NCBI RefSeq assembly: GCF_003334255.1 | Contig: NZ_QOWU01000015.1 | Direction: 5' to 3' (one strand) | Source of the DNA: Escherichia coli | GTDB lineage: Bacteria; Pseudomonadota; Gammaproteobacteria; Enterobacterales; Enterobacteriaceae | DNA: 64,000 nucleotides | Shown: positions 2,481-64,000 of the stretch, piece after piece | How the letters are laid out: every line of letters starts with the position of its first letter | How positions within the stretch are numbered: the first letter of the stretch is position 1 | Notes under the pieces: generated by a model | What the model was told of the DNA's origin: nothing | What the model saw: the letters and a program-made list of their open reading frames with translations, nothing else | The model's database searches: none | Made by a program: the position numbers and the translations under genes

Positions 2481-3221
2481 ATGCTGCAAAATATTCGAAT
2501 TGTGCTGGTGGAGACGTCACACACCGGCAATATGGGTTCTGTTGCCCGTGCCATGAAAACAATGGGATTAACCAATCTGTGGCTGGTTAATCCACTGGTG
2601 AAACCCGACTCCCAGGCGATTGCCCTGGCAGCAGGGGCCAGCGATGTGATTGGTAATGCTCACATCGTCGATACGCTCGACGAAGCGTTAGCCGGTTGTA
2701 GCCTGGTGGTGGGCACCAGCGCACGTTCCCGCACGCTGCCATGGCCGATGCTCGACCCGCGCGAATGCGGCCTGAAAAGCGTCGCTGAAGCGGCAAATAC
2801 CCCGGTGGCGCTGGTGTTTGGTCGCGAGCGCGTCGGCTTGACCAATGAAGAGTTGCAGAAATGCCATTATCATGTCGCGATTGCGGCTAACCCGGAATAC
2901 AGCTCGCTGAACCTGGCGATGGCGGTTCAGGTTATTGCCTATGAAGTGCGCATGGCCTGGCTGGCAACTCAGGAAAACGGCGAGCAGGTCGAGCATGAAG
3001 AGACGCCGTATCCGCTGGTCGATGATCTGGAGCGTTTTTATGGTCATCTGGAACAAACGCTGCTGGCAACCGGTTTTATCCGTGAAAACCATCCGGGGCA
3101 GGTGATGAATAAATTGCGCCGTCTGTTTACCCGTGCGCGCCCGGAAAGCCAGGAGTTGAATATCCTGCGCGGGATTCTGGCTTCTATTGAGCAGCAGAAT
3201 AAAGGTAACAAGGCCGAATAA
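2481..3221 (+). CDS. trmJ: TrmJ tRNA (Cm32/Um32) 2'-O-methyltransferase
   Basis: 246-aa SpoU-family ORF immediately upstream of iscR. Confidence 0.95.
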
Positions 3222-3403
<182 letters not shown>

Positions 3404-3471
3404 CAACAGGTACAAACGCCACGATAAAAAAATGGCACTGAAGGTTAAATACCCGACTAAATCAGTCAAGT

Positions 3472-10779: not shown

Positions 10780-11556
10780 ATGTCCGAAACAAAAAACGAA
10801 CTTGAAGACCTGCTGGAAAAAGCAGCAACTGAACCGGCGCACCGCCCGGCCTTTTTCCGTACTCTACTGGAATCCACCGTCTGGGTGCCTGGTACGGCGG
10901 CGCAGGGCGAGGCTGTGGTTGAAGATAGCGCGCTTGATTTACAGCACTGGGAAAAAGAAGACGGCACCAGCGTCATTCCTTTTTTCACCTCGTTAGAAGC
11001 ACTTCAACAGGCGGTTGAAGACGAACAGGCATTTGTCGTAATGCCCGTTCGCACGCTGTTTGAGATGACACTTGGCGAAACGCTCTTCCTTAATGCCAAA
11101 CTGCCAACCGGTAAAGAATTTATGTCGCGTGAAATCAGTTTGTTGATTGGTGAAGAGGGAAATCCGCTGAGCAGCCAGGAAATCCTGGAAGGCGGTGAAT
11201 CGCTGATATTATCGGAAGTCGCAGAGCCGCCAGCACAAATGATTGATTCACTCACCACCTTATTTAAAACCATTAAGCCGGTGAAGCGTGCTTTTATTTG
11301 TTCAATTAAAGAGAACGAAGAGGCACAGCCTAATTTACTTATTGGCATTGAAGCCGATGGTGATATCGAAGAAATTATTCAGGCGACGGGAAGTGTAGCG
11401 ACCGATACATTACCTGGCGATGAACCAATCGATATTTGTCAGGTGAAAAAAGGGGAAAAAGGAATTAGCCACTTTATTACCGAACATATTGCGCCATTCT
11501 ATGAACGTCGCTGGGGTGGTTTTTTGCGTGACTTTAAACAGAATCGGATAATCTAA
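10780..11556 (+). CDS. sseB: SseB (enhanced serine sensitivity protein)
   Basis: 258 aa from ATG 10780 (MSETKNELEDLL). Confidence 0.9.
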   Translation: MSETKNELEDLLEKAATEPAHRPAFFRTLLESTVWVPGTAAQGEAVVEDSALDLQHWEKEDGTSVIPFFTSLEALQQAVEDEQAFVVMPVRTLFEMTLGETLFLNAKLPTGKEFMSREISLLIGEEGNPLSSQEILEGGESLILSEVAEPPAQMIDSLTTLFKTIKPVKRAFICSIKENEEAQPNLLIGIEADGDIEEIIQATGSVATDTLPGDEPIDICQVKKGEKGISHFITEHIAPFYERRWGGFLRDFKQNRII

Positions 11557-11559
11557 AAT

Positions 11560-11580
11560 ATGCCGCCCAAAGGGCGGCAT
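11560..11580. terminator. Stem-loop after sseB; also the candidate 3' end of the minus-strand ryfA-like transcript
   Basis: atgccgccc-aaa-gggcggcat is a perfect 9-bp stem. On the minus strand it is followed by atatttta; the U-tract is weak. Confidence 0.5.
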
Positions 11581-11736
11581 TCGGGCTTACTTGCTGCTCT
11601 GAAGGTTGTTAACCACCAGTAAATTGTCGCCGGAGAGACTCCGGTTATTATTTACCTCGGTTAACAGCGCACCAGAAACAATAAGTACGATACAAAAGCA
11701 CCGTATCTTCATTGTGCGGTCCATGCGAAGACCGCA

Positions 11737-11811
11737 TCACGACAGCACCACTGGCGATATTGCCGCGATAGCAAGCGCTGTGAAACACCTGCATTTACGG
11801 CCACGGAACAT
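11737..11811 (-). CDS. Candidate 24-aa small hydrophobic protein (MFRGRKCRCFTALAIAAISPVVLS), TimP/type-I-toxin-like
   Basis: ATG at 11809-11811 with SD aggaaagg 2 nt upstream; basic N-terminus followed by a 14-residue hydrophobic stretch; an upstream anti-SD (ccctttcc) can pair with the SD. Below the 60-aa cutoff of the ORF track. Confidence 0.3.
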   Translation of the reverse strand: MFRGRKCRCFTALAIAAISPVVLS

Positions 11812-11900
11812 CCTTTCCTAAAGCCAGCGCCCGTTTGCGAGACGGCGGAAAGGGCCGCAGTGGATAATACACTAACAGAACAATAATAACTCTCTTTTGC

Positions 11901-11929
11901 TTGACAAAAAGAGAGTTACTGGCGAGTAT
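11901..11929 (+). promoter_or_regulatory. Sigma70-like promoter inside a palindrome (copy 1)
   Basis: Consensus -35 TTGACA at 11901-11906, 17-nt spacer, -10 GAGTAT at 11924-11929. The -35 sits in the loop of the palindrome ctctcttttg/caaaaagagag and overlaps the minus-strand TTGTCA. Confidence 0.45.
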
Positions 11930-11935
11930 TGTCTC

Positions 11936-12032
11936 CGCTGAGACGCGCTTGCATTACTACGGTAATACAACCTGCTGGAAAGGCCGCGAACCGGACCAGC
12001 AACAAAAAACCGCCTGATTTTGGCGGTTTTTT
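11936..12032 (+). ncRNA. Candidate ~100-nt sRNA (TimR-like), copy 1
   Basis: Runs from the predicted TSS to an intrinsic terminator (ccgcc-tgatttt-ggcgg + T6, 12009-12032). Contains ggaaaggccgc, complementary (with one bulge) to the 5' UTR of the minus-strand small-ORF transcript. Confidence 0.4.
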
Positions 12033-12222
12033 GTTTTTTAAAGGAAAGTGAATTTACATGTTTAAGTAATATCTTTTACCGGTTAGAATTTTTAATTTTG
12101 AGCAGGATTTGTTTATATTTGTCTGAATTCAGACTAATAAGCCAGGTTATTTTATTACCGAACACGGCGGAAAGGGCCGGTGTCGATAATACGCTAAATA
12201 AACAATAATTACTCTCTTTTGC

Positions 12223-12251
12223 TTGACAAAAAGAGAGTTACTGGTGAGTAT
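12223..12251 (+). promoter_or_regulatory. Sigma70-like promoter, copy 2
   Basis: Identical TTGACA (12223-12228), 17-nt spacer and GAGTAT (12246-12251), in the same palindrome context as copy 1. Confidence 0.4.
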
Positions 12252-12257
12252 TGTTTT

Positions 12258-12357
12258 GCTGTGAAGCACCTGCGTTGCTCATGTAACACAAGTCAACCTG
12301 CTGGAAAGGCCGCGAACCAGACTAGCAATAAAAAACCGCCAAATTCGGCGGTTTTTT
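12258..12357 (+). ncRNA. Candidate ~100-nt sRNA, copy 2 (sibling of 11936-12032)
   Basis: Same promoter; diverged 5' half; conserved 3' block cctgctggaaaggccgcgaacc; terminator stem ccgcc/ggcgg preserved although the loop differs (aaattc vs tgatttt). Confidence 0.4.
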
Positions 12358-50929: not shown

Positions 50930-51779
50930 TCAGGATTCCTGACGTAAATAAATAGCCCGATAACAAATACTCACCAGCACTGCACCGCCGATAATATTAC
51001 CCAGCATCACCGGGAGCAGATTGGCGGTAATAAAATGGCTGACCGTCAGAGCCGGAAAATTGTCTGCGCTACTGTGCGCCAGTTGCCAGAAGGGGGGGAG
51101 GGGCGAAATGGCGAATGGCAATGGCGAACGGAATCACAAACAAATTGGCGATACAGTGCTCAAAGCCACTGGCGACAAACAGGGTGATGGGCAAAATCAT
51201 GGCGACGATTTTGTCGCATAACGAACGCCCGCAATAACTCATCCACAGCGCCAGGCAAACCATCAGATTGCACATAATGCCGAGGCTGACAGATTCAGTA
51301 AATGTATGATGCATTTTGCCCTCGGCGCAGTGTAAAACCGCGACTCCCCACATCGCGTTTTCACTCATCACCAGCCCGGAAAACCAGATTAACAAACTGA
51401 AACAGGCAATACCTGCCAGATTACCGCAGGCCACCAGAAGTGCGTTAATCAGCCAAGTTCGCCAACTAATAACGCCCCGACTTTTTGCCATCACCGTCAT
51501 TACCGACGAGGTGAACAGGCTGGTGCCGCAAACCGCCAGCAAAATAAAGCCGAGTGTAAAGCAAAGGCCGCCCACCAGATGGGTTAATGCCTGTGAAGAC
51601 GGGGCATCGGCGATAACGGAAAGGTAAAAAGTAAATCCAATCGTCATAAACACGCCAGCGGACATCGCCATTAAAAAGACCGATACTTTGCTGCGGGCAA
51701 TTTTATGGGCAGCAATCCGTTCAGCGATTGCCGCTTTTCTGGCGCTCAACTGCAAGTCGAAAGAGAGTTTGTTTCTCAT
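50930..51779 (-). pseudogene. focB: focB (formate channel FocB) interrupted by a +1 frameshift
   Basis: Two overlapping minus-strand ORFs (51069-51779 and 50930-51121) together cover an FNT-family protein. They are joined by removing one G from the G7 run at 51092-51098. The span is 850 nt, where 849 would give an intact 282-aa protein. Confidence 0.75.
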
Positions 51780-51800
51780 GCATACTCCTGCAAAAGCAGA

Positions 51801-53816
51801 TTACAACACCTCGCGAACCGAGATCCCCAGACGCTGCATTCGTGACAGCAGCGTGGTGCGCTTCATCCCTAATCGTGTCGCCGCGCCACGGGGCCCGGCA
51901 ACAATGCCATTGGTTTCTCGCAATACCTGAACAATGCGCTGACGTTCTTCTTCGTCATTCTCTGGCGTCGTCGGGTGCAGCAACTGCGCCATTGAACTGC
52001 GAAGCGCTGAATCTTCATTTAGCGTCGGCAGTAAACGGCTTTGTCGGACATTAAGATGTAAATTCAGACTGTTACCGCGAGTCAGCAGTACCGCTCGCTC
52101 AATCACGTTTTCCAGCTCGCGCACGTTGCCCGGCCAGTCCCACGACATCAACTGGCGTAGCGCCTCGGTTGGGATGGCGTCAATTGCGCGATTCATATGG
52201 CGCGCCATTTTTTGCGTGAAATGTTTTGCTAAAAGAGGGATATCTTCCGGACGGTCGCGCAGCGGCGGCAATTCCAGTGGGAAGACATTCAGGCGATAAA
52301 AGAGATCGCTGCGAAACTGGCGATCTTCAACCATTTGCCACAAATCACGGTTGGTGGCGGCAATGACTCTGACATTCACCGGGATCGTTCTACTCCCGCC
52401 GAGACACTCAATCTCCCGCTCCTGCAATACGCGCAGCAGTTTAGGCTGAAGTTCTAACGGCAGATCGCCAATTTCATCGAGAAACAACGTGCCGCCATCG
52501 GCAATTTCAAAACGACCACGATGGGTATTAATCGCACCAGTAAACGCCCCTTTGTCATGACCGAATAACTCACTTTCCAGAAGACTGGCGGGGATGGCAG
52601 CGCAGTTGATTTTGACCAGCGGCTTGTCGTGTCGCGGGCTAAGTTGATGGATCGCTCTGGCGATCACCTCTTTGCCGGTTCCGGTTTCACCACAAATCAA
52701 CACCGTACTGTCGCTCTTCGCCACAATATCTACCTGCTGGAGCAGGTCTTCCATTGCCTGGCTTTGATAGATAATGTCACCGACGCCCAGATTTGAAAGG
52801 AGCTGCTCGCTAAGCTGGTGGTTTTCTTGCTGCAAACTTTCCTGCAAATCGGTCATGCTGCGCCAGGCATCGGCATTGCCAACGGCAATAGCGATGCGAT
52901 CGGCTATGTGTTGTAGTAGCTGGCAGTTTTCCTCACTAAAGAGAGTGGAAGAGGTATGCGCCAGCAACAATGCACCCGGTGTATGGTTGCCAAAGGTAAG
53001 CGGTATCAGGAGCGCAGATTCGCAGCCGTTAGATGCAAGTAAGAGTAATAACGGGTCGCGTTGCCAGAGAAACAGATCATCTGCACGATGCGTCAAGGTC
53101 GGTTGTCGGGTTTGTAGCGTTTGTGTCAGCAATACACTGTCGCCAGGCATATTGCGTGGCAGACACGCACAATGTGAGGCAGAAAGATCGCTGCACCACA
53201 GGCTGAACTTCTCGTTCTTTCGATGATCGCCCAGTACCATACTGACTGAAGCCAGACCGAAAAAATGATGGATCTCACGGGCGACGTCAGCGATCAGATC
53301 GTCGAGATCAAGATGTGACAGCACTGCATTAGTAATATCAACCAGTACCCGATGATGATCGCGATCTTTCTCCAGCAAACGCAGCGCCACCTGTTGTTCT
53401 TCATCATTGAGCCATGATTGCAGAACCGGGGTGATTATGCGTGTCAGCCAGTTAAACAGTGTGCAATCCTGGGGAGTAAAACGACTGCCGTGGGTGCGAA
53501 TAAAGCGTAGCTCCGCCATTCCACTACTGCCGAGAAGGACGGCGTGACGCGAATAATCGACCATCTCGCCCTGATACTCTGTTGTTGCCGTCACATCGCT
53601 GCCATCATCATGGTAGCGGTAATAGAAGTTGCTTTTGAGAACATGCAGTTCAATAAGTTGTACCGGGCTGAACGGCGGCGGCAGCGGGATGAAGGCGCGT
53701 AATAAAGACGCCTTGCCGTGTTTCTGTGCTAACCGCTCCGCGAGCATTCCGTTTACCGCTTCAATTGTTATTCCTTGTGGCGGGGCAAACATCGCCTCGT
53801 CTGACATAGCCATCAA
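51801..53816 (-). CDS. hyfR: HyfR, sigma54-dependent activator of the hyf operon
   Basis: 671-aa ORF: GAF-like N-terminus, AAA+ sigma54-interaction domain ([14 protein letters not shown]), C-terminal HTH. Intact. Confidence 0.93.
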
Positions 53817-53842
53817 CAGTCCTTATTAATGAGAAATCCTTC

Positions 53843-54256
53843 TCACGCAATTTTTCTGGCCATCAGATAGATAGCCGGTTCCAGCACAATTTCATCCAAC
53901 AGATGAATGAATTGAATGCTACGCGCTTGCCACACAGACGTCGCGTCATCTGCCAGTGGCGCGAATGCCCGGGTCAACAGGGCGGTGTGGCTGGCGTCAA
54001 TAACAATCTCACCAAAAGTCATCACCCCCAGCATCTTACGTCGGGCTTGCTCCTCTTCGACCAGTGCAAGCCAATCTTCGTATTCCGTCAGTGGGCAGCG
54101 GAAGGCGACATTCAGACAATCAATCACGCCAACGTGATGACCGATAGCCAGCGAGTAATACATTACCTGAGAGCTGTGTTCCGGCATCTCGTCGCTACTG
54201 GCGACAAACTTTTTTCGCAGCGTCCAGAAAACAATTTCCCCGCACTCTTCAGTCAT
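53843..54256 (-). CDS. hyfJ: HyfJ (HycH-like hydrogenase maturation factor)
   Basis: 137 aa from ATG 54254-54256 ([11 protein letters not shown]). Confidence 0.85.
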
Positions 54257-55006
54257 GTAACCCCCTGAGTACGCGAAAGAGTTGCTGAACGATACTATTG
54301 AGACGTGGATCGTCGGCATCGCGCAACCAGGTGTTAACCCGATTTCCTGTAGGATCGTCGCTTAAATGGCGCAGGAGCCGATCGCAAATTTCTCGCCCCT
54401 GACGATAGCCCGCCAGCCGCCGCGCTTCTCGCTCAATGGCGATACGCTGTGATGGCGGGATCTGTGGCCACAACGGTTGCATAGTCACCCCGGTGGGATC
54501 GCGATAATCCACAGCGTGAATCTTCTGTTGCAGCAAACCGAGCGCCACGGCGAAACCGTGAATGGTGGCGGCCGGTGTTGGCGGGCAGCCGGGGATCCAA
54601 ACATCAATGGGGACAATGGTGTCGCTGCCGCCCCAGACGCTGTAGAGATCGTGGAAAATACCGCCGCCGACACCGCACGCGCCGTAGGAAACACAGATTT
54701 ATGATCGGGGGCAGACTCATACGCCCGAAGTGCAGGCATACGCATCGCCCGGGTGACTGCGCCAGTAAATAACAAAATATCGGCGTGACGCGGTGATGAA
54801 ACAACCTTAATGCCAAAACGTTCTGCGTCGAATACGGGGGTGATGGCAGCAAAAATTTCGATTTCACAGGCGTTGCAGCCACCGCAATCGACGCGATAAA
54901 CGTAGGCTGAGCGACGGATATCCTGTAGCAAATGCCGCTTCATATTTTGCGTTTGCTCGTCCAGCGTGATGGGCTGGCTGACATATTGCGTAAGCACTGG
55001 ACTCAT
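54249..55006 (-). pseudogene. hyfI: hyfI (NuoB-like hydrogenase-4 small subunit) interrupted by a -1 frameshift
   Basis: N-terminal ORF 54485-55006 (with [10 protein letters not shown]) leaves the conserved frame after ...YESAPDHK. The conserved continuation ([13 protein letters not shown]...IPGCPP...) is in the other frame and runs to the stop at 54249. A T3 run at 54698-54700 is one base short. The span is 758 nt, where 759 would give 252 aa. Confidence 0.75.
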
Positions 55007-55542
55007 AGCTGCTCCTTAGCCACCAGCGGTACATCTGTATCGTCGTTGAGCAGCGTCGCGCGTTGTTTGCACTCCGGGCAGACGCTCGCTTGCGCCCATA
55101 ACATTTCGCGGTTTTGTGGCGCATTTTGTTGCTGTGCCAACAATTCAGCAGCCAGTGCGACGGTTTTTTGCGGGGCAAACGGGCGTTCGCAACGGCTGCA
55201 ACGTTGTAGATGGAACGTCGCGCGGGTATAGAGATCGGCTTTATTGGTGACGGTCAGTTCAAAGTTATTGGTAAGCTGGATGGCTCTGGTCGGGCACACT
55301 TCTTCACAACGTCCGCAGTAAATACAACGCCCCAGATAGAGCTGCCAGGTGCGCGAATTTTGCTGGTCGTCGGTCTGGATAGTCAGCGCATTTGCCGGAC
55401 AAGCACAGGCGCCGCAGGCAATACATTGGCTGGGCATCAGGTCCGGTTTCCCGCGAAAGCCTGGGCTGACCTCCAGTGGCGCGAAGGGATATTTCACCGT
55501 CGCGGTTCCGGCGCGCATAATAGTTTTCAGTAACTTCAGCAT
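55003..55542 (-). CDS. hyfH: HyfH, 2x[4Fe-4S] ferredoxin-type subunit
   Basis: 179-aa ORF with [10 protein letters not shown] and [12 protein letters not shown] motifs. Confidence 0.93.
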
Positions 55543-55551
55543 CTTCTGTCC

Positions 55552-57219
55552 TTACTTCAGCGGCGAACGGTTACGATCAATGCCGTAGCGTTCGATCTCT
55601 TTATACGGCACGGTTTTTGACTGGCGCTTGCGCACATCTACCAGCGTCACACGGTCGGTACAGGAGTAGCAGGGATCAAGGCTACCGATAATCAGCGGTG
55701 CGTCAGAAACGGTATTGCCGCGCAGCATGTAACGCAACACCGGCCAGTTGGCGTAGGTGGCGGCACGGCAGCGCCAGCGGAACAATTTTTGGTTATCACC
55801 GAGCATGCTCCAGTGCACGTCTTCACCGCGTGGCGCTTCAACAAAGCCCAGCGCGAATGCGTGAGGTTTATAGCTAAAGCCTTCGGTCAGCAGTGGGGTA
55901 TCCGGCATGTTGTCGAGGGCAAATTCCAGCATTGCCAGCGAATCAAACGTCTCTTTGACACGGACCATCACGCGGGAGAAAACATCGCCGCCGGTAAAGG
56001 TAAACAGTGTTTTTGGAATATTGCCGTAGTCGGCGTAGGGGTGATCAAAGCGCAAATCACGGGCGATTTGTCGGTCGAGAATGCCAATGCCCTGAGTGCG
56101 TTGTTCCATATTCGGCGTAGCAAGCAGCATCTCTACCAGCTCCGACACGTCGGCGCGCATCTCGCGCACCAGTTTCAGCGTTTGCAGACGTTGCTCTTTG
56201 AGAATATCGCGGCGAACACCACCAATCAGATTCAGACCGTAGGTTTTACGCGACCCGATCAGCAATTCCGCCATCGTCATCGACTTTTCCCGCACGCGGA
56301 AAAATTGCATAAAGCCGGTATCAAAACCAACGAAATGGCAGGAGAGGCCAAGGTTAAGCAAATGACTGTGTAGCCGTTCGACTTCCAGCAGAATCGAGCG
56401 AATAGTATGTGCTCGTTGCGGCACCTCAATCCCCAGTGCATTTTCAACCGAATTGGTATAGGCCACACTGTGGGCAAAACCGCAAATCCCACACACGCGG
56501 TCCGATAAGAAGGTCACTTCGTTGTAGCCCATCCGCGTTTCTGCCAGTTTCTCCATGCCGCGATGGACATAAAACAGGCGGTAATCAGCATCGACAATTT
56601 GCTCGCCATCCACAAACAAGCGGAAGTGACCCGGTTCATCGGAGGTGATATGCAGCGGGCCGACAGGGATCACCCGCGCATCGCTGTTGCCCTCATTGAT
56701 AAACGGATACGTTTCGGAATCAGTCGTCGGTTCAGGGCGCAGTCGATAATCCATCGCATCTTTGCGCAGCGGATGCATATCTTCCGGCCAGTCATCGGGC
56801 AACACCAGGCGACGCTGATCCGGCAGGCCAACCGGAATCAGCCCGTACATATCGCGAATTTCTCGCTCGCCCCAGACCGCGGCAGGGACGCGCGGTGTGA
56901 CTGACGGAAACTCCCGACTGTCGGCATCGACCAGCGCCTTCACCACAATCCAGCATTTTTCGGCCCCTTCCATTGAAAGGGCATAATAAACCGCGTAATG
57001 ACCGTTAAGTGTCCGCTCGTCGTTGCCAAACAGGACCGGAAGCCAGCCATCATGTTGATAATAAAGATACTGTACAACGTCAGGCAGCAGATTGATTTTC
57101 ACCGTAATGGTGACCTGTTCAGGCGTTTGTCGCTCTTCATCCAGCACCGCGCCGGGGAACTGCGTTTTCAGGGCGGCGAGAATCGCTTCGCCACGATTTG
57201 ACGATGAATTAACGTTCAC
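55552..57219 (-). CDS. hyfG: HyfG, hydrogenase-4 [NiFe] large subunit
   Basis: 555 aa from GTG 57217-57219; N-terminal [10 protein letters not shown] and C-terminal DPCYSCTDR nickel-binding motifs. Confidence 0.95.
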
Positions 57220-58789
57220 TGTGTTTCTCCGAAACAGATGCGGTGCCTGAAGGCAAAAAATCATGCCAGGTGCTACGTTGTGCAGGCAGATCGTGCGTCC
57301 CTGAGAGGACTATAGTGGAAGCGCCCGCCAGGATCCTGATGACAGGTTGTGGAATATGCGTTCCCATCGCCAGCATCATGACCAGCAGAATCACCATTGG
57401 CGAGGTGGTCAACCAGCCGAGATCACCCCGGTTAACGGCCTGCGGCGGTTTCGCCATTAACACCCGCGCAGCCATCCGTACCAGGCCCGCCAGCACCAGC
57501 GTTAACAGCAATAACAGCAGGACGATAATCAGCAGGTGATTACGTGCCAGTCCGGCGGTAATGGTCATAAATTCGCTAAGAAAAATGTTGAAGGGCGGCA
57601 TCCCTGCCAGCGCCAGCGCACCGCCGCCAAACAGCACGGCGGTAAATGGCATGATTTTGAGCATCCCACAGACGACGTTGAGATCGCGCGTGCCGTACTT
57701 GAGCAGTACATTGCCGGAACCGCAGAACAGCAGCGTTTTTGCCAGACTGTGGTTTAAGATGTGCAGCAGCGCGGCAAAAATTCCCAGCGGCCCGCCAATG
57801 CCTAGCGCCACCGCGACCAGTCCCATGTTCTCCACGCTGGAGTACGCCAGCAGACGCTTAATGTCCCGCTGTACCAGAATGAAAAATGCCGCCACGGCAA
57901 CCGACAACATGCCGAAGATGAGCAACAACCGGTTGGGGAAATCGCTGCCGATGGCCTGGCAAATAATGATGTAATAGCGAATCAGCACCAACAGCGCGCA
58001 GTTCAGCAATACGGCGGAGAGTAGGGCGCTGACCGGACTCGGCGCTTCACTGTGAGCATCCGGCAGCCAGGCGTGCATGGGAAATAGCCCGGTTTTGGTA
58101 CCAAAGCCAATTAGCACAAACACAAAGGCCAACAGCATTAATGTTGGATCAAGCAAGGACGATTGCTTAAGAACCTCGCTCCAGAATATCGCCATTTCTG
58201 CCTGCGGCATAACGCTGGCGGCGTTGGCGTATACCAGCACGGTACCGAACAGACCAAAAGCGACACCAACAGTACAAATAATGATGTACTTCCATGCAGC
58301 TTCCAGCGATGAACGCTGACCGTAAATGCCTACCAGAAACGCCGAGCTTAAGGTGGTGGCTTCGATCGCCGCCCACATCACAATCAGGTTATTGCTGGTA
58401 ACAACCAGCAGCATGGTGAACAAAAACAGATGGAAGAAACCGTAGTAATCGCACAGCGTAACGGGTGAAAGCTCGCCGTGCTCCACTTCATGACGCATGT
58501 AGCCAATCGAGTAAACACCGGTGAGAAAGCCAATCACACCAAGAATGGCGAGGAACAAACCGCCCAGACCATCAATATGAAGCCACAGTCCCGCAGCGAA
58601 TATTTCTCCTGCATCAGCGGCAGTTTGGACCACCCAGAGTGCCAGAATCAGCAGCAGTGTGATCCCTAAGCTATGTAATACGGTCACCGTACAAGTCGCA
58701 GAGAGCCTCCGTTTCCGGCAGGCAAAACAGAGCAGCGAAAAAAGCAGCGGCGTGAGCAGGAGTAAAGCGAACATCACAGAATAACTCAT
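57209..58789 (-). CDS. hyfF: HyfF, NuoN/L-like antiporter-type membrane subunit
   Basis: 526-aa multi-TM ORF. Confidence 0.93.
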
Positions 58790-58793
58790 CTCA

Positions 58794-59444
58794 TTATCCC
58801 TTCAGCGCGGTCAAGTCGTTCACGTCCAGCGTGCCGTGGGTACGCCATATTTTTCTTGCCAGTAACACCATCACAATGACGGCGAAGATGGCGTCGGTAG
58901 CGATACCTATTTCCACCAGTTCCGGTGCTCGCCAGGCAAGAAGCGCCAGCACCAGATGGGAGCCGTTTTCCATCAGGCAGTAACCAAAAATTTGCCGCAG
59001 GATATTGCGCTGGCTGACAATGCACAGCAGGCCAAGCAGAAAATGACCTAACGCTACCGCCAGCGCCGGTTTCAGCCCGGTAGCCATCGGTAGCTTCACG
59101 GGCTGAACGACAAATGCGCAAAGCAGGACAATTAACGCCGCGAGCAGTGCCATCATTGCCGGACCGAATAACGCTTTTTCCGGGATGTTCTGGGGAATAT
59201 TTCGTGCAGCGTAAGTCATGATTAACGGTACCAGCAGCACTTTGGTGATAAAGGCGCTGGCGGACCAGATCAGCAGTTGCTCTGCGGCGAACAGGCACGA
59301 GAGGGTGGCGAAAATAGACACCAGCACCAGTGACTGGCAGGCGTAAAATCCGCATGACAGGCGATAGCTTTTGACGCTAATCACAAACAGCGATGTCAGC
59401 ATCATCAGTCCCGCCAGATTATTTACGATCATAGAACCGGTCAT
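58794..59444 (-). CDS. hyfE: HyfE membrane subunit
   Basis: 216-aa multi-TM ORF. Confidence 0.9.
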
Positions 59445-59455
59445 TCATCATCTCC

Positions 59456-60895
59456 TTACTGCAACCAGGTCGCGGCGATTACGCTGGAAATCAGCGACAT
59501 CACAATCAGTACAATCAACACCAGGCGCATTGATCCTGGCAGCGGTGCGGCATCGGCGACGGCCTCGCTCGGTTTGCCAGGCACAACGCGACCAAACCAG
59601 CGAATAAACCAGGCGAAACTGGCGACCGATTCAATCATCAGCAGAATCAGGGCGGGCAGCAGGATCCAGTACTCCACTGACAACGCAAAACCGGCAACAA
59701 ACAGCGGGAATTTACTGAAGAAGCCGTTGAACGGCGGTACGCCGGTAATCGCCAGCGCTACCACGCAGAAACCCACGCCTGGCAACGGCAGGGTGTGCAA
59801 TACGCCACGCAGACGCGGCAACAAGCGCGTGCCGCAGCTGTAACTCAGCGCACCTGCTACAAGGAAAAACAGGCTTTTAGCGAACGCGTGGTTGACGATG
59901 TAGGCGATGCTACCCTCCAGCGCCAGCCGCGAGCCGAAGATGGAGAGCGACAAGCCGAAGAACATCCAGCCAAGTTGAGTGATGGTCGACCAGGCCAGCA
60001 ACCGCTTCATATCCTGCTGTGGCAAATACATCAGGAAGCCATAAAGAATGGTGACCAGCGCCATGACCATGCCAACGCCGCCAATCACATGCGGGATATT
60101 GCCGCCGTCGATAATGGCGCGGGCAAAAATGTAAACGCCCACTTTCACCATCGATGCGGCGTGGAGATAAGCGCTGATCGGTGTTGGCGCTTCCATTGCA
60201 TCCGGTAGCCACGCTTGCATCGGTAGCTGGGCCGATTTCCCCCACGCGGCAAACAGGATGCCGCCATAAACCAGATAACGTGCGTCGCCGTGTAACTCGC
60301 TCATCGCGCTAAGCGCAAACGTTCCGGTCTGCAAAAACAGCGTGGCGGCGGCAAGATACAACCCCAACGAACCGATATGGGTGATAAGCAACGCTTTTAG
60401 TGCTGAACGCTGCGCTTTATCGCTCTGATAATAACTGATCAACGCCCAGGAGCAGCCGCCCGTAATTTCAAAAAACAACAACTGACCGAGCAGCGTCGAG
60501 GAGAGTACCAGTCCCGCCATCGCGCCGATAAACACCAGCAAAAATGCGTAATAACGATTCGTGCCGTTATGCGGGTGTTCGCGATTTTTATCCGTCAGAT
60601 AACCCGTGGAGTAGATCGTGACCAGCAAACCGAGAAACACCACCACAAACAGAATCAGCGTACTCACGCGATCAATGACCAGGCCAAACAATGCCACATC
60701 CCCCACGTTGACCAACGTCAACGTGACGGCAACTTTATCGGCCTGATAAAACGCGGAGATCAGCGACAACATGCACAGCGTGGTCAGCGCGGCGAACAAA
60801 ACCCCCCATTCGGCGGCCCGACGTTGTGGCGAAAACGAAACGACCAGTGCGCCGATAAAAGGCAGCATTAACGTCGTCAGAGCAAGATTTTCCAT
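59456..60895 (-). CDS. hyfD: HyfD, NuoM/L-like antiporter-type membrane subunit
   Basis: 479-aa multi-TM ORF. Confidence 0.93.
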   Translation of the reverse strand: MENLALTTLMLPFIGALVVSFSPQRRAAEWGVLFAALTTLCMLSLISAFYQADKVAVTLTLVNVGDVALFGLVIDRVSTLILFVVVFLGLLVTIYSTGYLTDKNREHPHNGTNRYYAFLLVFIGAMAGLVLSSTLLGQLLFFEITGGCSWALISYYQSDKAQRSALKALLITHIGSLGLYLAAATLFLQTGTFALSAMSELHGDARYLVYGGILFAAWGKSAQLPMQAWLPDAMEAPTPISAYLHAASMVKVGVYIFARAIIDGGNIPHVIGGVGMVMALVTILYGFLMYLPQQDMKRLLAWSTITQLGWMFFGLSLSIFGSRLALEGSIAYIVNHAFAKSLFFLVAGALSYSCGTRLLPRLRGVLHTLPLPGVGFCVVALAITGVPPFNGFFSKFPLFVAGFALSVEYWILLPALILLMIESVASFAWFIRWFGRVVPGKPSEAVADAAPLPGSMRLVLIVLIVMSLISSVIAATWLQ

Positions 60896-60911
60896 ATTCC
60901 GTCAGTGCTCC

Positions 60912-61859
60912 TTACAGACCGGTTAACCAGAAGACCCATGCAAGCGCAGCAAGGCTGAAGCCAAGCCAGGTCACATGGTGAATGAGTAAAAAACGCCCGC
61001 GTGCCAGCGTGTTTTCTGCGATTGAGGCCAGTACAAAAATCAGCAAAACCTTGAGCAGCGTAACGACAAGTGAAGTCAGCAGGCAGGCGAGAGAAAGTTC
61101 TTGCGCGCGCCCAAAGGGCAGAAACAGGGCCACAAACAGTGCTGCCATCACGACCTGTTTCAGCCCCAGCCCCCATTTCGCCAGCGCCAGCCCGGCACCG
61201 GAATATTCTGTCAGCGGGCCTTCCTGTAATTCCTGTTCTGCTTCAGCAACATCAAAGGGAATTTTTCCCATCTCAATGAAGCAGGCAAAACCACAGGCCA
61301 GTAACGCCAGTACGGTGGTTAGCGGCGAGTTCCAGCCCATCGCCAGCGTATTGCTGATCATCTCGATATGCGTGGAATCCGCTATCAGTGCCAATACCAG
61401 CAGTGAGAGAATAAGCATGGGTTCGACCAGAATGCCGAGCGTCAACTCGCGACTGGCACCGACTCCCGCAAACGGACTTCCGGTATCCAGCCCGGAAAGA
61501 GCAAAGAAAAAACGAAACAGGGCAAGAAGATAGATAAGGGTGATCAGATCGCCGCCGCCCGCAAAAGGGGAAACGGTAATAAATAGTGGTAGGGCCATCG
61601 CCAGCACCAGCATGCTGCTGATTAATACCCAGGGCATCAGGCGGAACATCAGACCTGAAGATGTCGGCGCAACTTCCTGGCGTTTAAACAGTTTGTGGAT
61701 ATCGCGATAATCCTGCCAGATCCCCGGTCCGCGGCGGGAGTGCATTCGCGCGCGTATCTGCCGGGAAATACCCGTAAAAAGTGGGGTTAGCATCAGCAGA
61801 ATCACGGCCTGTGCTAACGCAAAAATGACCAGATATCCGTCGCAAAGAGTTTGTCTCAT
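60912..61859 (-). CDS. hyfC: HyfC, NuoH-like membrane subunit
   Basis: 315 aa from ATG 61857-61859 (MRQTLCDGY). Confidence 0.93.
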   Translation of the reverse strand: MRQTLCDGYLVIFALAQAVILLMLTPLFTGISRQIRARMHSRRGPGIWQDYRDIHKLFKRQEVAPTSSGLMFRLMPWVLISSMLVLAMALPLFITVSPFAGGGDLITLIYLLALFRFFFALSGLDTGSPFAGVGASRELTLGILVEPMLILSLLVLALIADSTHIEMISNTLAMGWNSPLTTVLALLACGFACFIEMGKIPFDVAEAEQELQEGPLTEYSGAGLALAKWGLGLKQVVMAALFVALFLPFGRAQELSLACLLTSLVVTLLKVLLIFVLASIAENTLARGRFLLIHHVTWLGFSLAALAWVFWLTGL

Positions 61860-61869
61860 GGTGATTTCC

Positions 61870-63887
61870 TTAGACGGCAATAGCGATTAGCAGCACAACC
61901 AGTGCGGCGACCACATACAGGCAATAGAGACGAAAGTCGCCGCTTTGCAGATGCTGTATTTCTTTGGCCAGCCGTTGGGTGGCGCTCACGATGGGGCGGA
62001 TCACCCGCTCATCCCAGAAGGGTTCTGTGCTCTGAGCCCTGGCGGTGACGTGCGCAAGACCTTTATTTAGCCTCAGCGTAGGGTCGAGCTGTTGTCGTAG
62101 ACGAAATAGCGCAGAGAAGACCACACGCAGCGGCTGCATCACGCCATTGCCTGACGGGGCCATCGCATTTTCCCAGCCGTAGCCGCATGCCCAGGCATCT
62201 CCTGTGCGACGAAACGCTGCGCGGCGCGAACGACACCACAGCCAGTAAAGGCCAGGCAGCAAAGGCATCGCCAGTAGTAACAGCAACAGTAATGAGGAGG
62301 TTACCTGTGTATGAAACGTGCCGGGTACAAGAGCTATTCCGCTGGCGACAGTGACGGGAGGGGTATTGGTAAACGCATGGGCAATATGCATTATCTTCGG
62401 TGCCAGCCAACTGGCACTAAGCGCAATTAATACGCAGAGTGCCGCGAGCAGTAGCATGGCGACGATCATCGTATTTGGCACTTCCTGTGCCTCTTCAGCG
62501 TGTGTACTGCGCGGCGCACCACAGAAAGTAATACCGTACATTTTGACGAAGCACATTACTGCCAGCCCACCAGTGACTGCCAGCATTACCATAGCAATAG
62601 GACCCGCAAGTTGTAGCGCTACGGCTTCCACACGACTTAGTGAGAACAGCGACTGCCAGGTGTACCATTCGCTGATAAAACCATTCAGCGGAGGAATGGC
62701 TGATATCGCGAGGCAACCAATCAGGCATGCTGCGGCTGTCCACGGCATCCGTTTCGCCAGTGCCCCCATTTTTTCCATGTCGTGGGTATGCAAACGCGAA
62801 ATAATCGCGCCCGCGCCGAGAAATAGCAGCCCTTTGAACAGCGCATGGTTGAGCAGATGAAACAGTGCGCCGAGCAGTCCAACCACGGTGAGCAGCGGGT
62901 CGTGCAGTGACAGACCGTCCATCGCCACACCGACTGCCAGCAAAATAATGCCGACGTTTTCGACGGTACTCCAGGCCAGCAGCCGTTTGATATCCTGTTC
63001 CGCCAGCGCATATAGCACGCCCAGGAGCGCGGAGATTGCGCCGATCGCCATCACCAGAATGCCCCACCACAGAGGCAAACCCGTTTGCGCCAGCAGATCC
63101 ATCGCTACTTTCAGGATGCCGAAAATACCGATTTTGACCATTACGCCAGACATCAACGCCGAAGCGTGCGATGGTGCGGCAGGGTGAGCGCGCGGCAACC
63201 AGCTGTGCAACGGTATCATCCCGGCTTTCGCGCCAAAACCGAAAAAGGCCAGCAGAAACACCGCCGACGCCAGCCCCGGAGAAAGTGAAAGCGTGCGAAA
63301 CTGGCAAAATCGAGGCTGCCGCTTTCGCGCCCCATCAGCAAGAAGGCGATCATAATCAGCACCGATCCGGCGTGGGCGATAAAAAAGTAGAGCATGCCAG
63401 CGTTGATCGACGTTTTATCCTGCCTGGCAATGACCAGAAACCAGGAAGACAGCGACATCATTTCAAACAGCACGATGAACCAAAAAGCGTTGTCCATCAC
63501 CAGCAGGGCAACCATCGATGCGATGAAAAGATTCATAAAGAAGCCCATCGCCGCCGCGCCTTTGCCCTCGTATTCGCGCATATAAGTCAATGAATAGAGC
63601 GAACAAACCACCACCAGCAAGGAGATAACCAGCACCATAAATGCCGAGAGGCTATCCATTCGCAGGGTTAAATCGGCAAAGTCAAAAGGGGTGGCAAAAT
63701 GGGCGACTAAAGTTACACCAGCATGTAATTGCGTAATTCCGCTGATGATGCCAATCACGCCGCCCACCAGCGATGTGATGCCGGAAAGCTTAATAGCCAG
63801 TCTGTCCAGACCGAGTAAAAACAGCGAAGCCAGACTGGCAAACAGATAGAGGATCAGCGACCAGGTTAATAATTGCAGGGCATCCAT
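61870..63887 (-). pseudogene. hyfB: hyfB (NuoL-like hydrogenase-4 membrane subunit) interrupted by a -1 frameshift
   Basis: N-terminal ORF (ATG 63885-63887, MDALQLLTW...) and C-terminal ORF (stop at 61870) are in different frames and overlap near 63260-63300. Total span is 2018 nt, where 2019 would give 672 aa. The most likely site is gcgaaa at 63296-63300 (one base missing). Confidence 0.75.
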
Positions 63888-64000
63888 TAGCGTTGCTCCT
63901 GAGTGAGGGAAAGGGGATCCTCCCATAAGCGCTAACTTAAGGGTTGTGGTATTACGCCTGATATGATTTAACGTGCCGATGAATTACTCTCACGATAACT

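Follow-up and report, generated by a model that had tools for sequence, protein, structure and literature searches.

Hyd-4, or FHL-2, of Pectobacterium atrosepticum is homologous to the enzyme complex encoded by hyf in Escherichia coli (PMC7384014; PMC7654741). The Pectobacterium cluster is expressed and active and includes hyfK, a gene for a maturation protease, whereas the E. coli cluster lacks hyfK. The E. coli genes have been described as poorly expressed in their native setting and as missing the accessory gene (PMC7384014), and the reference list of the same paper includes Self et al. (2004), cited on hyf as a 'silent operon'. Decay of hyf in E. coli is already known in kind: a pangenome study of 2377 E. 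coli genomes places hyfD among the metabolic genes most often pseudogenised (PMC13322260). The locus, the process and the species-wide pattern are the same as those treated here; the gene named there is hyfD, however, which is intact in the DNA analysed in this work, where the hits are in hyfB, hyfI, focB and hyfA. A literature search for hyf operon pseudogenes and for a hyfB frameshift returned nothing specific to these alleles.

The locus lies in a 64,000-nucleotide stretch of E. coli DNA (hereafter the window). Compared with K-12 MG1655, its hyf block, flanked likewise by bcp and yfgO, agrees in gene content and gene order, at 98.5-100% nucleotide identity. The order hyfA-B-C-D-E-F-G-H-I-J-R-focB between bcp and yfgO is thus retained, and genomes with an identical region are annotated likewise. 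In K-12 all twelve ORFs of hyfABCDEFGHIJR-focB are intact, whereas the window combines three frameshifts with an insertion sequence, so that its operon appears genetically dead rather than only silent. We consider it highly probable (roughly 0.9) that this is a dead copy of the hyf/FHL-2 operon with four inherited lesions, produced by ordinary pseudogenisation under relaxed selection.

All hyf genes are read from the minus strand. Alignment with K-12 showed intact reading frames for hyfJ (53843-54256), hyfH (55003-55542, 540 nt), hyfF (57209-58789), hyfE (58794-59444), hyfC (60912-61859) and hyfD (59456-60895), the last of which many other E. coli have lost to a frameshift or a deletion. The gene for the [NiFe] large subunit, hyfG (55552-57219), does not differ from its K-12 counterpart at any of 1668 positions, and hyfR (51801-53813), encoding a sigma-54-dependent activator, aligns with K-12 over its full length with 0 indels and is also annotated as intact in strains G1/2 and JP538. 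Complete ORFs are not present for all structural subunits: frameshifts interrupt hyfB, hyfI and focB, and the insertion sequence cuts off hyfA. An Rfam scan of the hyf block returned no RNA families. Outside the block, all 44 complete coding sequences (window positions 1-50892) and a cut csiE are free of internal stops. An earlier note, made from the window's letters alone, had put the gene number at about 65; our count is about 57.

Gene-by-gene alignment with K-12 MG1655 revealed exactly three frame-breaking indels. In focB (50930-51779, formate channel) one base has been added, turning C6 into C7 on the coding strand (G7 at window positions 51092-51098); the first stop follows at codon 237 of 282 and the fragment covers only positions 1-230 of 282 in the NCBIfam FocB profile. 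In hyfI (54249-55006, NuoB-like Fe-S small subunit) one base is missing, A4 being reduced to A3 on the coding strand (T3 at 54698-54700), which breaks the reading frame around codon 103-104 of 252; the truncated product reaches only positions 27-106 of 166 in the NuoB-like domain profile. In hyfB (61870-63887, antiporter-like membrane subunit) TTTCC has become TTTC on the coding strand, leaving a single G at 63297 in place of GG; the reading frame is lost around codon 197 of 672, a stop occurs at codon 224 and two ORFs remain (63216-63887 and 61870-63261). The best-matching models of the HyfB, HyfI and FocB fragments are NF005086 (HyfB), NF005012 (NuoB family) and NF007261 (FocB), respectively. 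The frameshifts are significantly concentrated in the hyf block (3 of 11 genes versus 0 of 44; Fisher p = 0.006), the more so once the insertion in hyfA is also counted (p = 0.0013). The alignment thus bears out the earlier note in reporting frameshifts in focB, hyfI and hyfB and intact reading frames in the other complete genes of the window. Its description of each as a single-base indel in a short homopolymer holds for focB and hyfI but not for hyfB, where a GG dinucleotide has been shortened, and its statement that only these three genes are disrupted is right for frameshifts but overlooks a fourth lesion.

This fourth lesion is an element of the IS421/IS186 type (IS4 family) that interrupts hyfA 26-38 nt before its 3' end. 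It starts at position 63925 and is cut by the window end, so that just its first 76 bases are included (63925-64000, plus strand), identical to the first 76 nt of the element in strain G1/2; the last 38 nt of hyfA (63887-63924, minus strand) are severed from the rest of the gene. The full-length copy of G1/2 measures 1337 bp and possesses 22-bp terminal inverted repeats, and the RefSeq annotation of its transposase reads 'IS4-like element IS421 family transposase'. The target-site duplication comprises 12 bp (63913-63924, GGGGATCCTCCC) and is G-rich/C-rich. Judged on the G1/2 copy, the element agrees with the IS186/IS421 group, for which we looked for a length of about 1.3 kb, terminal inverted repeats, one DDE transposase gene and a GC-rich target duplication of 10-13 bp. 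The junction between hyfA and the element occurs as in the window in 66-67 genomes, and insertions in either orientation are found at this same hyfA site, depending on the strain. IS186-type elements favour sites of the form GGGG-N-CCC, and the lon promoter is a known IS186/IS421 hot spot in E. coli. The hyfA site resembles that case in its G-rich/C-rich duplication and in having been hit in both orientations. It differs in that the element has landed at the 3' end of a gene: the effect to be expected is a polar separation of the operon from its promoter, whereas in the lon case the promoter itself is disrupted. The element separates hyfA and the upstream promoter region from hyfB-focB, the promoter being presumably located upstream of hyfA as in K-12. 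No description of the hyfA 3' end as an insertion hot spot was found.

Taken at face value, the window's haplotype would have lost Hyd-4 function. The claim of the earlier note that the operon as written makes no functional Hyd-4 is a reasonable reading of the sequence, given that the truncated HyfI scores 50 bits against the NuoB-like domain profile, the cut-off of which is 116. Strains carrying this haplotype would not be expected to possess Hyd-4, and neither metabolic models nor work on H2 production should assume FHL-2 for strains bearing these alleles.

The three frameshifts have been inherited and are genuine mutations, not assembly errors, because the same alleles are present in many independent complete genomes. 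The earlier note had proposed a search for the same indels in other E. coli, and they do recur. In a census based on exact 81-mers, 5426 complete genomes were covered, 4293 of which bear hyf; 1133 of the 5426 gave no match at all to the hyfB probe. The hyfB deletion was found in 1255 of the 4293 hyf-bearing genomes (29%), the focB G7 allele in 199 and the hyfI deletion in 19 complete genomes, figures that are not to be equated with population frequencies since complete-genome collections are heavily skewed to few clonal groups. At most one SNP separates the hyf region of the window from that of G1/2, G6/7, G8 (human, Germany), JP538 (pig, Japan), B-1109 (human, USA) and cM8a; the nearest records in the collection are 1 SNP away from the window in the hyf block and none is exactly identical to the window's strain. 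Independent assemblies from Germany, Japan, the USA and Galapagos share the alleles, and in matching records, including those of G1/2 and JP538, RefSeq already tags focB, hyfI and hyfB as 'frameshifted' (focB also in B-1109).

Each lesion resides on one shared haplotype and therefore each frameshift arose once. All carriers of the hyfI deletion have an identical 759-nt hyfI, from which non-carriers differ by 8-25 SNPs. Carriers of focB G7 are identical within 300 nt on either side, while each sampled non-carrier differs at three or more sites; one genome outside that sample, MB06232, has G6 on the G7 haplotype. Carriers of the hyfB deletion have a common state at K-12 nt 633, at which all non-carriers differ. 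Recurrent slippage was considered as the source of the shared hyfI and hyfB alleles and was rejected on the grounds of this haplotype linkage. A strict nesting of the alleles, with hyfB containing focB and focB containing hyfI, was likewise rejected: MB51 combines the hyfI and focB lesions with an intact hyfB, and 2014C-3061 those of hyfI and hyfB with an intact focB. SNPs counted gene by gene reveal recombination mosaics; these two genomes, for instance, show 0 SNPs in hyfH-hyfI and 13-31 SNPs in neighbouring genes. The occurrence of the same haplotypes in different hyf backgrounds indicates that the null haplotypes were spread by recombination.

The window is one case of a decay that affects the whole species. 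Twelve genomes were taken as a stratified sample, in even steps through the ranking, and the lesions of each were listed from blastn projections. Eight of them carry lesions, which affect 23 of 144 hyf genes as opposed to 1 of the 187 genes flanking hyf (p = 2.5e-8). In all, at least 17 different lesions were recorded, and one of those known in hyfD is a 208-bp deletion. Furthermore, a hyfD frameshift from G6 to G5 occurs in 992 genomes, that is in 23% of the hyf-bearing complete genomes. The intact hyf operon of K-12 is thus not representative of E. coli. Among genomes with an intact operon, dN/dS for hyfB-focB amounts to 0.07-0.11 (about 0.09), compared with 0.12-0.35 among decayed ones, a contrast that serves as supporting evidence, as the pairs are non-independent and the decayed pairs are less diverged, which partially confounds it. 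Intact hyf is under clear purifying selection and so is not neutral in every lineage.

We infer that relaxed selection is the cause of the decay. An operon that has been described as silent or poorly expressed and that lacks an accessory gene may be one in which, for these reasons, null mutations are selected against weakly or not at all; once one essential subunit was lost, the remaining operon would be free to decay. Each of the three frameshifts in hyfB, hyfI and focB has a single origin, survives among E. coli as a null allele that still segregates, and came into the window's genome by descent and homologous recombination. The suggestion of the earlier note that this lineage is losing Hyd-4 under relaxed selection is supported in kind, and the decay is species-wide; rather than three recent private hits, however, the lesions are older alleles of single origin that segregate widely. 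The locus would make a clean example of a 'silent' operon that is dying across a species while old null alleles are shuffled between strains by recombination. Its significance past bookkeeping is probably little, yet a full census of hyf could help to decide whether, and in which lineages, Hyd-4 has a physiological role in E. coli.

Selection may instead have favoured the loss, inactivation of Hyd-4/FHL-2 being beneficial in some E. coli lineages such that null alleles were selected up and spread by recombination. The frequencies of the single-origin null alleles, 29% for hyfB and 23% for hyfD among hyf-bearing complete genomes, may owe more to positive selection or hitch-hiking than to drift, but database frequencies are clonally biased. 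The null haplotypes of hyfI and focB are found on several hyf backgrounds, and insertion sequences have struck the same hyfA site twice, once per orientation; the site preference of IS186-type elements, however, accounts for the repeated hit without selection. The many types of lesion at many positions are, in addition, what neutral decay predicts. We therefore regard adaptive loss as improbable, and it is equally speculative that losing a proton-reducing complex pays in some gut or environmental niches, with the hyfA 3' end as a recurrent IS186 off-route.

Even less credible is that ordinary pseudogenisation is only apparent and that working products are still made, by ribosomal frameshifting or from a HyfB in two pieces. 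Between them, the two hyfB ORFs do span almost all of the HyfB profile (2-211 and 213-668), the second of them begins at GTG, and in NCTC122 the hyfB lesion is the sole hyf defect. On the other hand, four of the five sampled carriers of the hyfB deletion have further hyf lesions, HyfI lacks one third of the NuoB-like domain, and in the window the insertion also breaks the link of these genes to hyfA and to the region upstream of it. Inspection of the hyfB and hyfI sites by eye showed no canonical slippery heptamer, and the ORF is unshifted in most genomes, including K-12 and O55:H7, which does not fit a programmed ribosomal frameshift.

Phase variation, in which the homopolymers would act as contingency tracts that switch hyf and focB on and off, was raised in the earlier note; it finds no support for hyfB and hyfI, is at most a weak possibility for focB, and as an account of the locus is very unlikely. 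Contingency loci carry, within the ORF or ahead of it, a homopolymer or repeat tract that is long, typically 8 bases or more, whereas the sites here are G7 in focB, T3 in hyfI and G1 in hyfB. The focB G7 is the sole run of at least seven bases in the hyf block, but the changes from GG to G in hyfB and from T4 to T3 in hyfI lie far below lengths that slip at useful rates, and neither site varies among any of the near-identical genomes, each lesion being tightly linked to its haplotype. For focB, G7 is present in seven of the eight clone members checked; the eighth, MB06232, equals the window over 14.2 kb save for one SNP and a G6 that restores the frame, which could however be a homopolymer error of that assembly. 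Switching of focB by itself would in any case not rescue the system, as the hyfB, hyfI and IS lesions are fixed.

Finally, that the indels are locally clustered homopolymer errors of one assembly, as the earlier note had also considered, is refuted almost beyond doubt, for although two of the three sites sit in single-base runs and such errors are known from long-read assemblies, identical alleles occur in 19 to 1255 complete genomes that were sequenced independently, are tied to specific SNP haplotypes instead of being private to one assembly, and include a hyfB site that is not a homopolymer, while errors of this kind would be expected to strike the longest homopolymers of an assembly, and the nine runs of 7-8 A or T that the window has elsewhere, in or beside intact genes, are all unbroken.

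Separately from the four lesions, hyfH differs from K-12 near position 55412 by 6 bp; the difference is in-frame and represents a harmless polymorphism.

Gene-by-gene alignment of K-12 MG1655 to the window called exactly three frame-breaking indels, all in the hyf block (50930-64000, minus strand). In focB, the G7 tract at 51092-51098 extends a coding-strand run from C6 to C7 (+1 base) and the first stop appears at codon 237 of 282; in hyfI, T3 at 54698-54700 corresponds to a reduction of A4 to A3 (-1 base), which breaks the frame near codon 104 of 252; in hyfB, a single G at 63297 reflects a change of TTTCC to TTTC (-1 base), and the reading frame is disrupted from around codon 197 of 672. 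The frameshifts described in the earlier note are therefore confirmed at the positions it gave. Its statement that each lies in a short homopolymer holds for the focB G7 and hyfI T runs, but the hyfB site is a dinucleotide. The reading frames of hyfR, J, H, G, F, E, D and C span their full length. hyfH differs from K-12 by 6 bp in frame near 55412, a length polymorphism (540 nt in the window and several strains, 546 nt in K-12 and others) located within a short direct repeat (TGCCTGCGG/TGCCTGC). Outside the hyf block, a search for comparable indels found none: 44 of 44 complete CDS and the cut csiE translate cleanly, and these CDS carry no pseudogene flag in the near-identical genome G1/2. The excess of lesions in the hyf block corresponds to a Fisher p of 0.006, or 0.0013 when the insertion in hyfA is included.

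This insertion is a fourth hyf lesion. The remainder of the window is intact, as had been claimed, but the restriction of damage to focB, hyfI and hyfB missed it. Of hyfA, the window contains just the final 38 nt (63887-63924). From 63925 onwards it consists of the initial 76 nt of an IS421/IS186-type element, which is 1337 bp long, is bounded by 22-bp terminal inverted repeats and has a target duplication of 12 bp, GGGGATCCTCCC (insertion at 63913-64000 including the duplication). In G1/2 the remainder of hyfA stands beyond the element. HyfA is shortened by its last few residues only, and hyfB-focB is severed from hyfA and the upstream region. In K-12, a sigma-54 promoter is situated upstream of hyfA. 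The window's junction was found in 66-67 complete genomes. Strain RM14721 (locus L023, 14001-15400) carries this IS at the identical site in opposite orientation, and at least 16 of the genomes listed match the junction through the 22-nt inverted repeat only; the site has therefore been struck at least twice, which suggests a hot spot that received separate insertions.

Comparison of the fragments with family profiles (NuoB-like, FocB, HyfB) bears on the claim that the operon cannot make a functional hydrogenase-4 (Hyd-4). The HyfI fragment covers NuoB-like positions 27-106 of 166 and scores 50 bits, below the cut-off of 116. By homology to NuoB/HycG, a small subunit that lacks the C-terminal third is unable to coordinate its Fe-S cluster, so a working Hyd-4 would not be expected, in agreement with that claim. 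The FocB fragment retains profile positions 1-230 of 282. The two overlapping hyfB reading frames (63216-63887 and 61870-63261, the second opening with GTG) jointly cover HyfB positions 2-211 and 213-668; expression of such a split HyfB is formally conceivable.

All three indels recur in other E. coli. Exact 81-mers centred on each lesion were searched in 5426 complete genomes; among those holding the respective locus, the hyfB deletion occurs in 1255 of 4293, focB G7 in 199 of 4298 and the hyfI deletion in 19 of 4000. Each lesion is bound to one haplotype. Carriers of the hyfI deletion possess one identical 759-nt hyfI (non-carriers are 8-25 SNPs away), carriers of focB G7 show no differences from one another within ±300 nt while every non-carrier in the sample differs at three or more sites, and at K-12 nt 633 all hyfB-deletion carriers have the window base and all non-carriers a different one. 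The allele combinations do not nest: hyfB is intact in MB51, which carries the hyfI and focB lesions; focB is intact in 2014C-3061 and 13E0780, where the hyfI and hyfB lesions occur together with a doubly frameshifted hyfD; and WP7-S17-ESBL-04 combines the hyfI and hyfB lesions with removal of focB and most of hyfR by IS1. Per-gene SNP counts reveal clear recombination mosaics. 2014C-3061 and MB51 show 0 SNPs against the window in hyfH-hyfI and 13-31 in adjoining genes, MB06021 has only focB in common with it, and the window's hyfG (55552-57219) equals that of K-12 (0/1668 differences) between hyf genes that differ by about 1%. Many other strains have a 48-bp in-frame insertion in hyfG at K-12 nt 1162. 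Haplotype linkage, non-nested combinations and mosaics therefore show the lesions to be long-standing null alleles that segregate in the species and have been transferred by recombination; they are not three fresh hits within the window's lineage.

Decay of hyf extends across the species. Twelve genomes were sampled at even steps down the hyfB 81-mer match ranking. Five carry the hyfB deletion and are disrupted by definition; four of these have additional lesions (O177:H21 in focB, hyfF and hyfD besides hyfB; APEC20/16 with six genes hit, MB06021 with four, A1_181 with two), and in NCTC122 hyfB is the sole lesion. Among the seven others, three are damaged elsewhere (strain 53 in hyfF and hyfD, LR-25 in hyfD and by a hyfB stop, JNE131328 in hyfI and hyfD) and four are fully intact (266917_2, MS20675, HCM-27C-1, O55:H7 DEC5E). 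Flagged genes number 23/144 in hyf versus 1/187 in the flanks (p = 2.5e-8), and the lesion table holds at least 17 distinct events. By a stratified estimate from these 12 genomes, about 60% of complete genomes with hyf have at least one lesion (crude range 36-87%). A hyfD G6 to G5 frameshift is present in 992/4284 genomes, and the hyfB probe is without a match in 1133/5426. A 208-bp out-of-frame hyfD deletion (K-12 nt 761-965 region) is common to loci L011, L012, L013, L017, L019 and L022, six sampled genomes that also have vapBC between purC and ypfJ; MB06021 and RM14721 have another, in-frame hyfD deletion. Across hyfB-focB, dN/dS by the Nei-Gojobori method ranges from 0.07 to 0.11 (mean 0.095) in intact-operon genomes and from 0.12 to 0.35 in decayed ones. 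The contrast fits a partial relaxation of selection, although the pairs are non-independent and those of decayed genomes are less diverged, which by itself inflates the ratio.

Relaxed selection, one of the causes put forward in the earlier note, is thus supported as species-wide, recombination-shuffled decay and not as a lineage-specific event. PMC7384014 describes E. coli hyf as poorly expressed natively and missing an accessory gene, and lists Self et al. 2004, on hyf as a 'silent operon', in its references. According to PMC13322260, hyfD belongs to the metabolic genes most often turned into pseudogenes in 2377 E. coli genomes, and hyf genes appear among those tied to particular E. coli clades (PMC4819403). 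Our literature search found no paper on these specific hyfB, hyfI and focB alleles, or on an IS at this position in hyfA. Such decay is ordinary biology, known already in kind.

Phase-variable homopolymers, also proposed, are rejected for hyfB and hyfI and are at most a weak possibility for focB: the tracts are all short (G7, T3 and G1), and the hyfB and hyfI sites do not vary among near-identical genomes. The sole exception is MB06232 (L024), the only genome with the focB-G7 haplotype to carry G6, which lay outside the haplotype sample and over 14.2 kb otherwise differs from the window by one SNP. G6 restores the focB frame and may represent a genuine reversion by slippage, the ancestral state of the clone or an assembly error in that record. 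The operon would still be dead, since hyfI and hyfB are frameshifted there too. Assembly error is ruled out by the recurrence of the identical alleles, by the RefSeq 'frameshifted' flags on focB, hyfI and hyfB in G1/2, JP538 and B-1109 (German, Japanese and US assemblies, independent of one another) and by the lack of breaks in nine A/T runs of greater length (7-8 bases) in other parts of the window.

The window spans the chromosome from csiE to hyfA. A collection search matched its hyf block to G1/2, G6/7 and G8 at 100% identity over 13.5 kb and to cM8a, JP538, B-1109 and MB06232 over 13.4 kb; direct comparison of the block gave one SNP against G1/2 (at 53662) and one against JP538 (at 56419). 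Over the remaining 50 kb, 7 SNPs separate the window from G1/2, and the window has one additional copy of a 91-bp intergenic repeat. This REP-like unit stands twice in tandem in the trmJ-iscR gap (3221-3405), singly in G1/2, and includes an Rfam naRNA4 match at 3283-3354. Between sseB and sseA lie the sRNA genes ryfA (11555-11858) and IS128 (11990-12198), and segments of about 190 bp in this region (11842-12032 and 12164-12357) share 83% identity.
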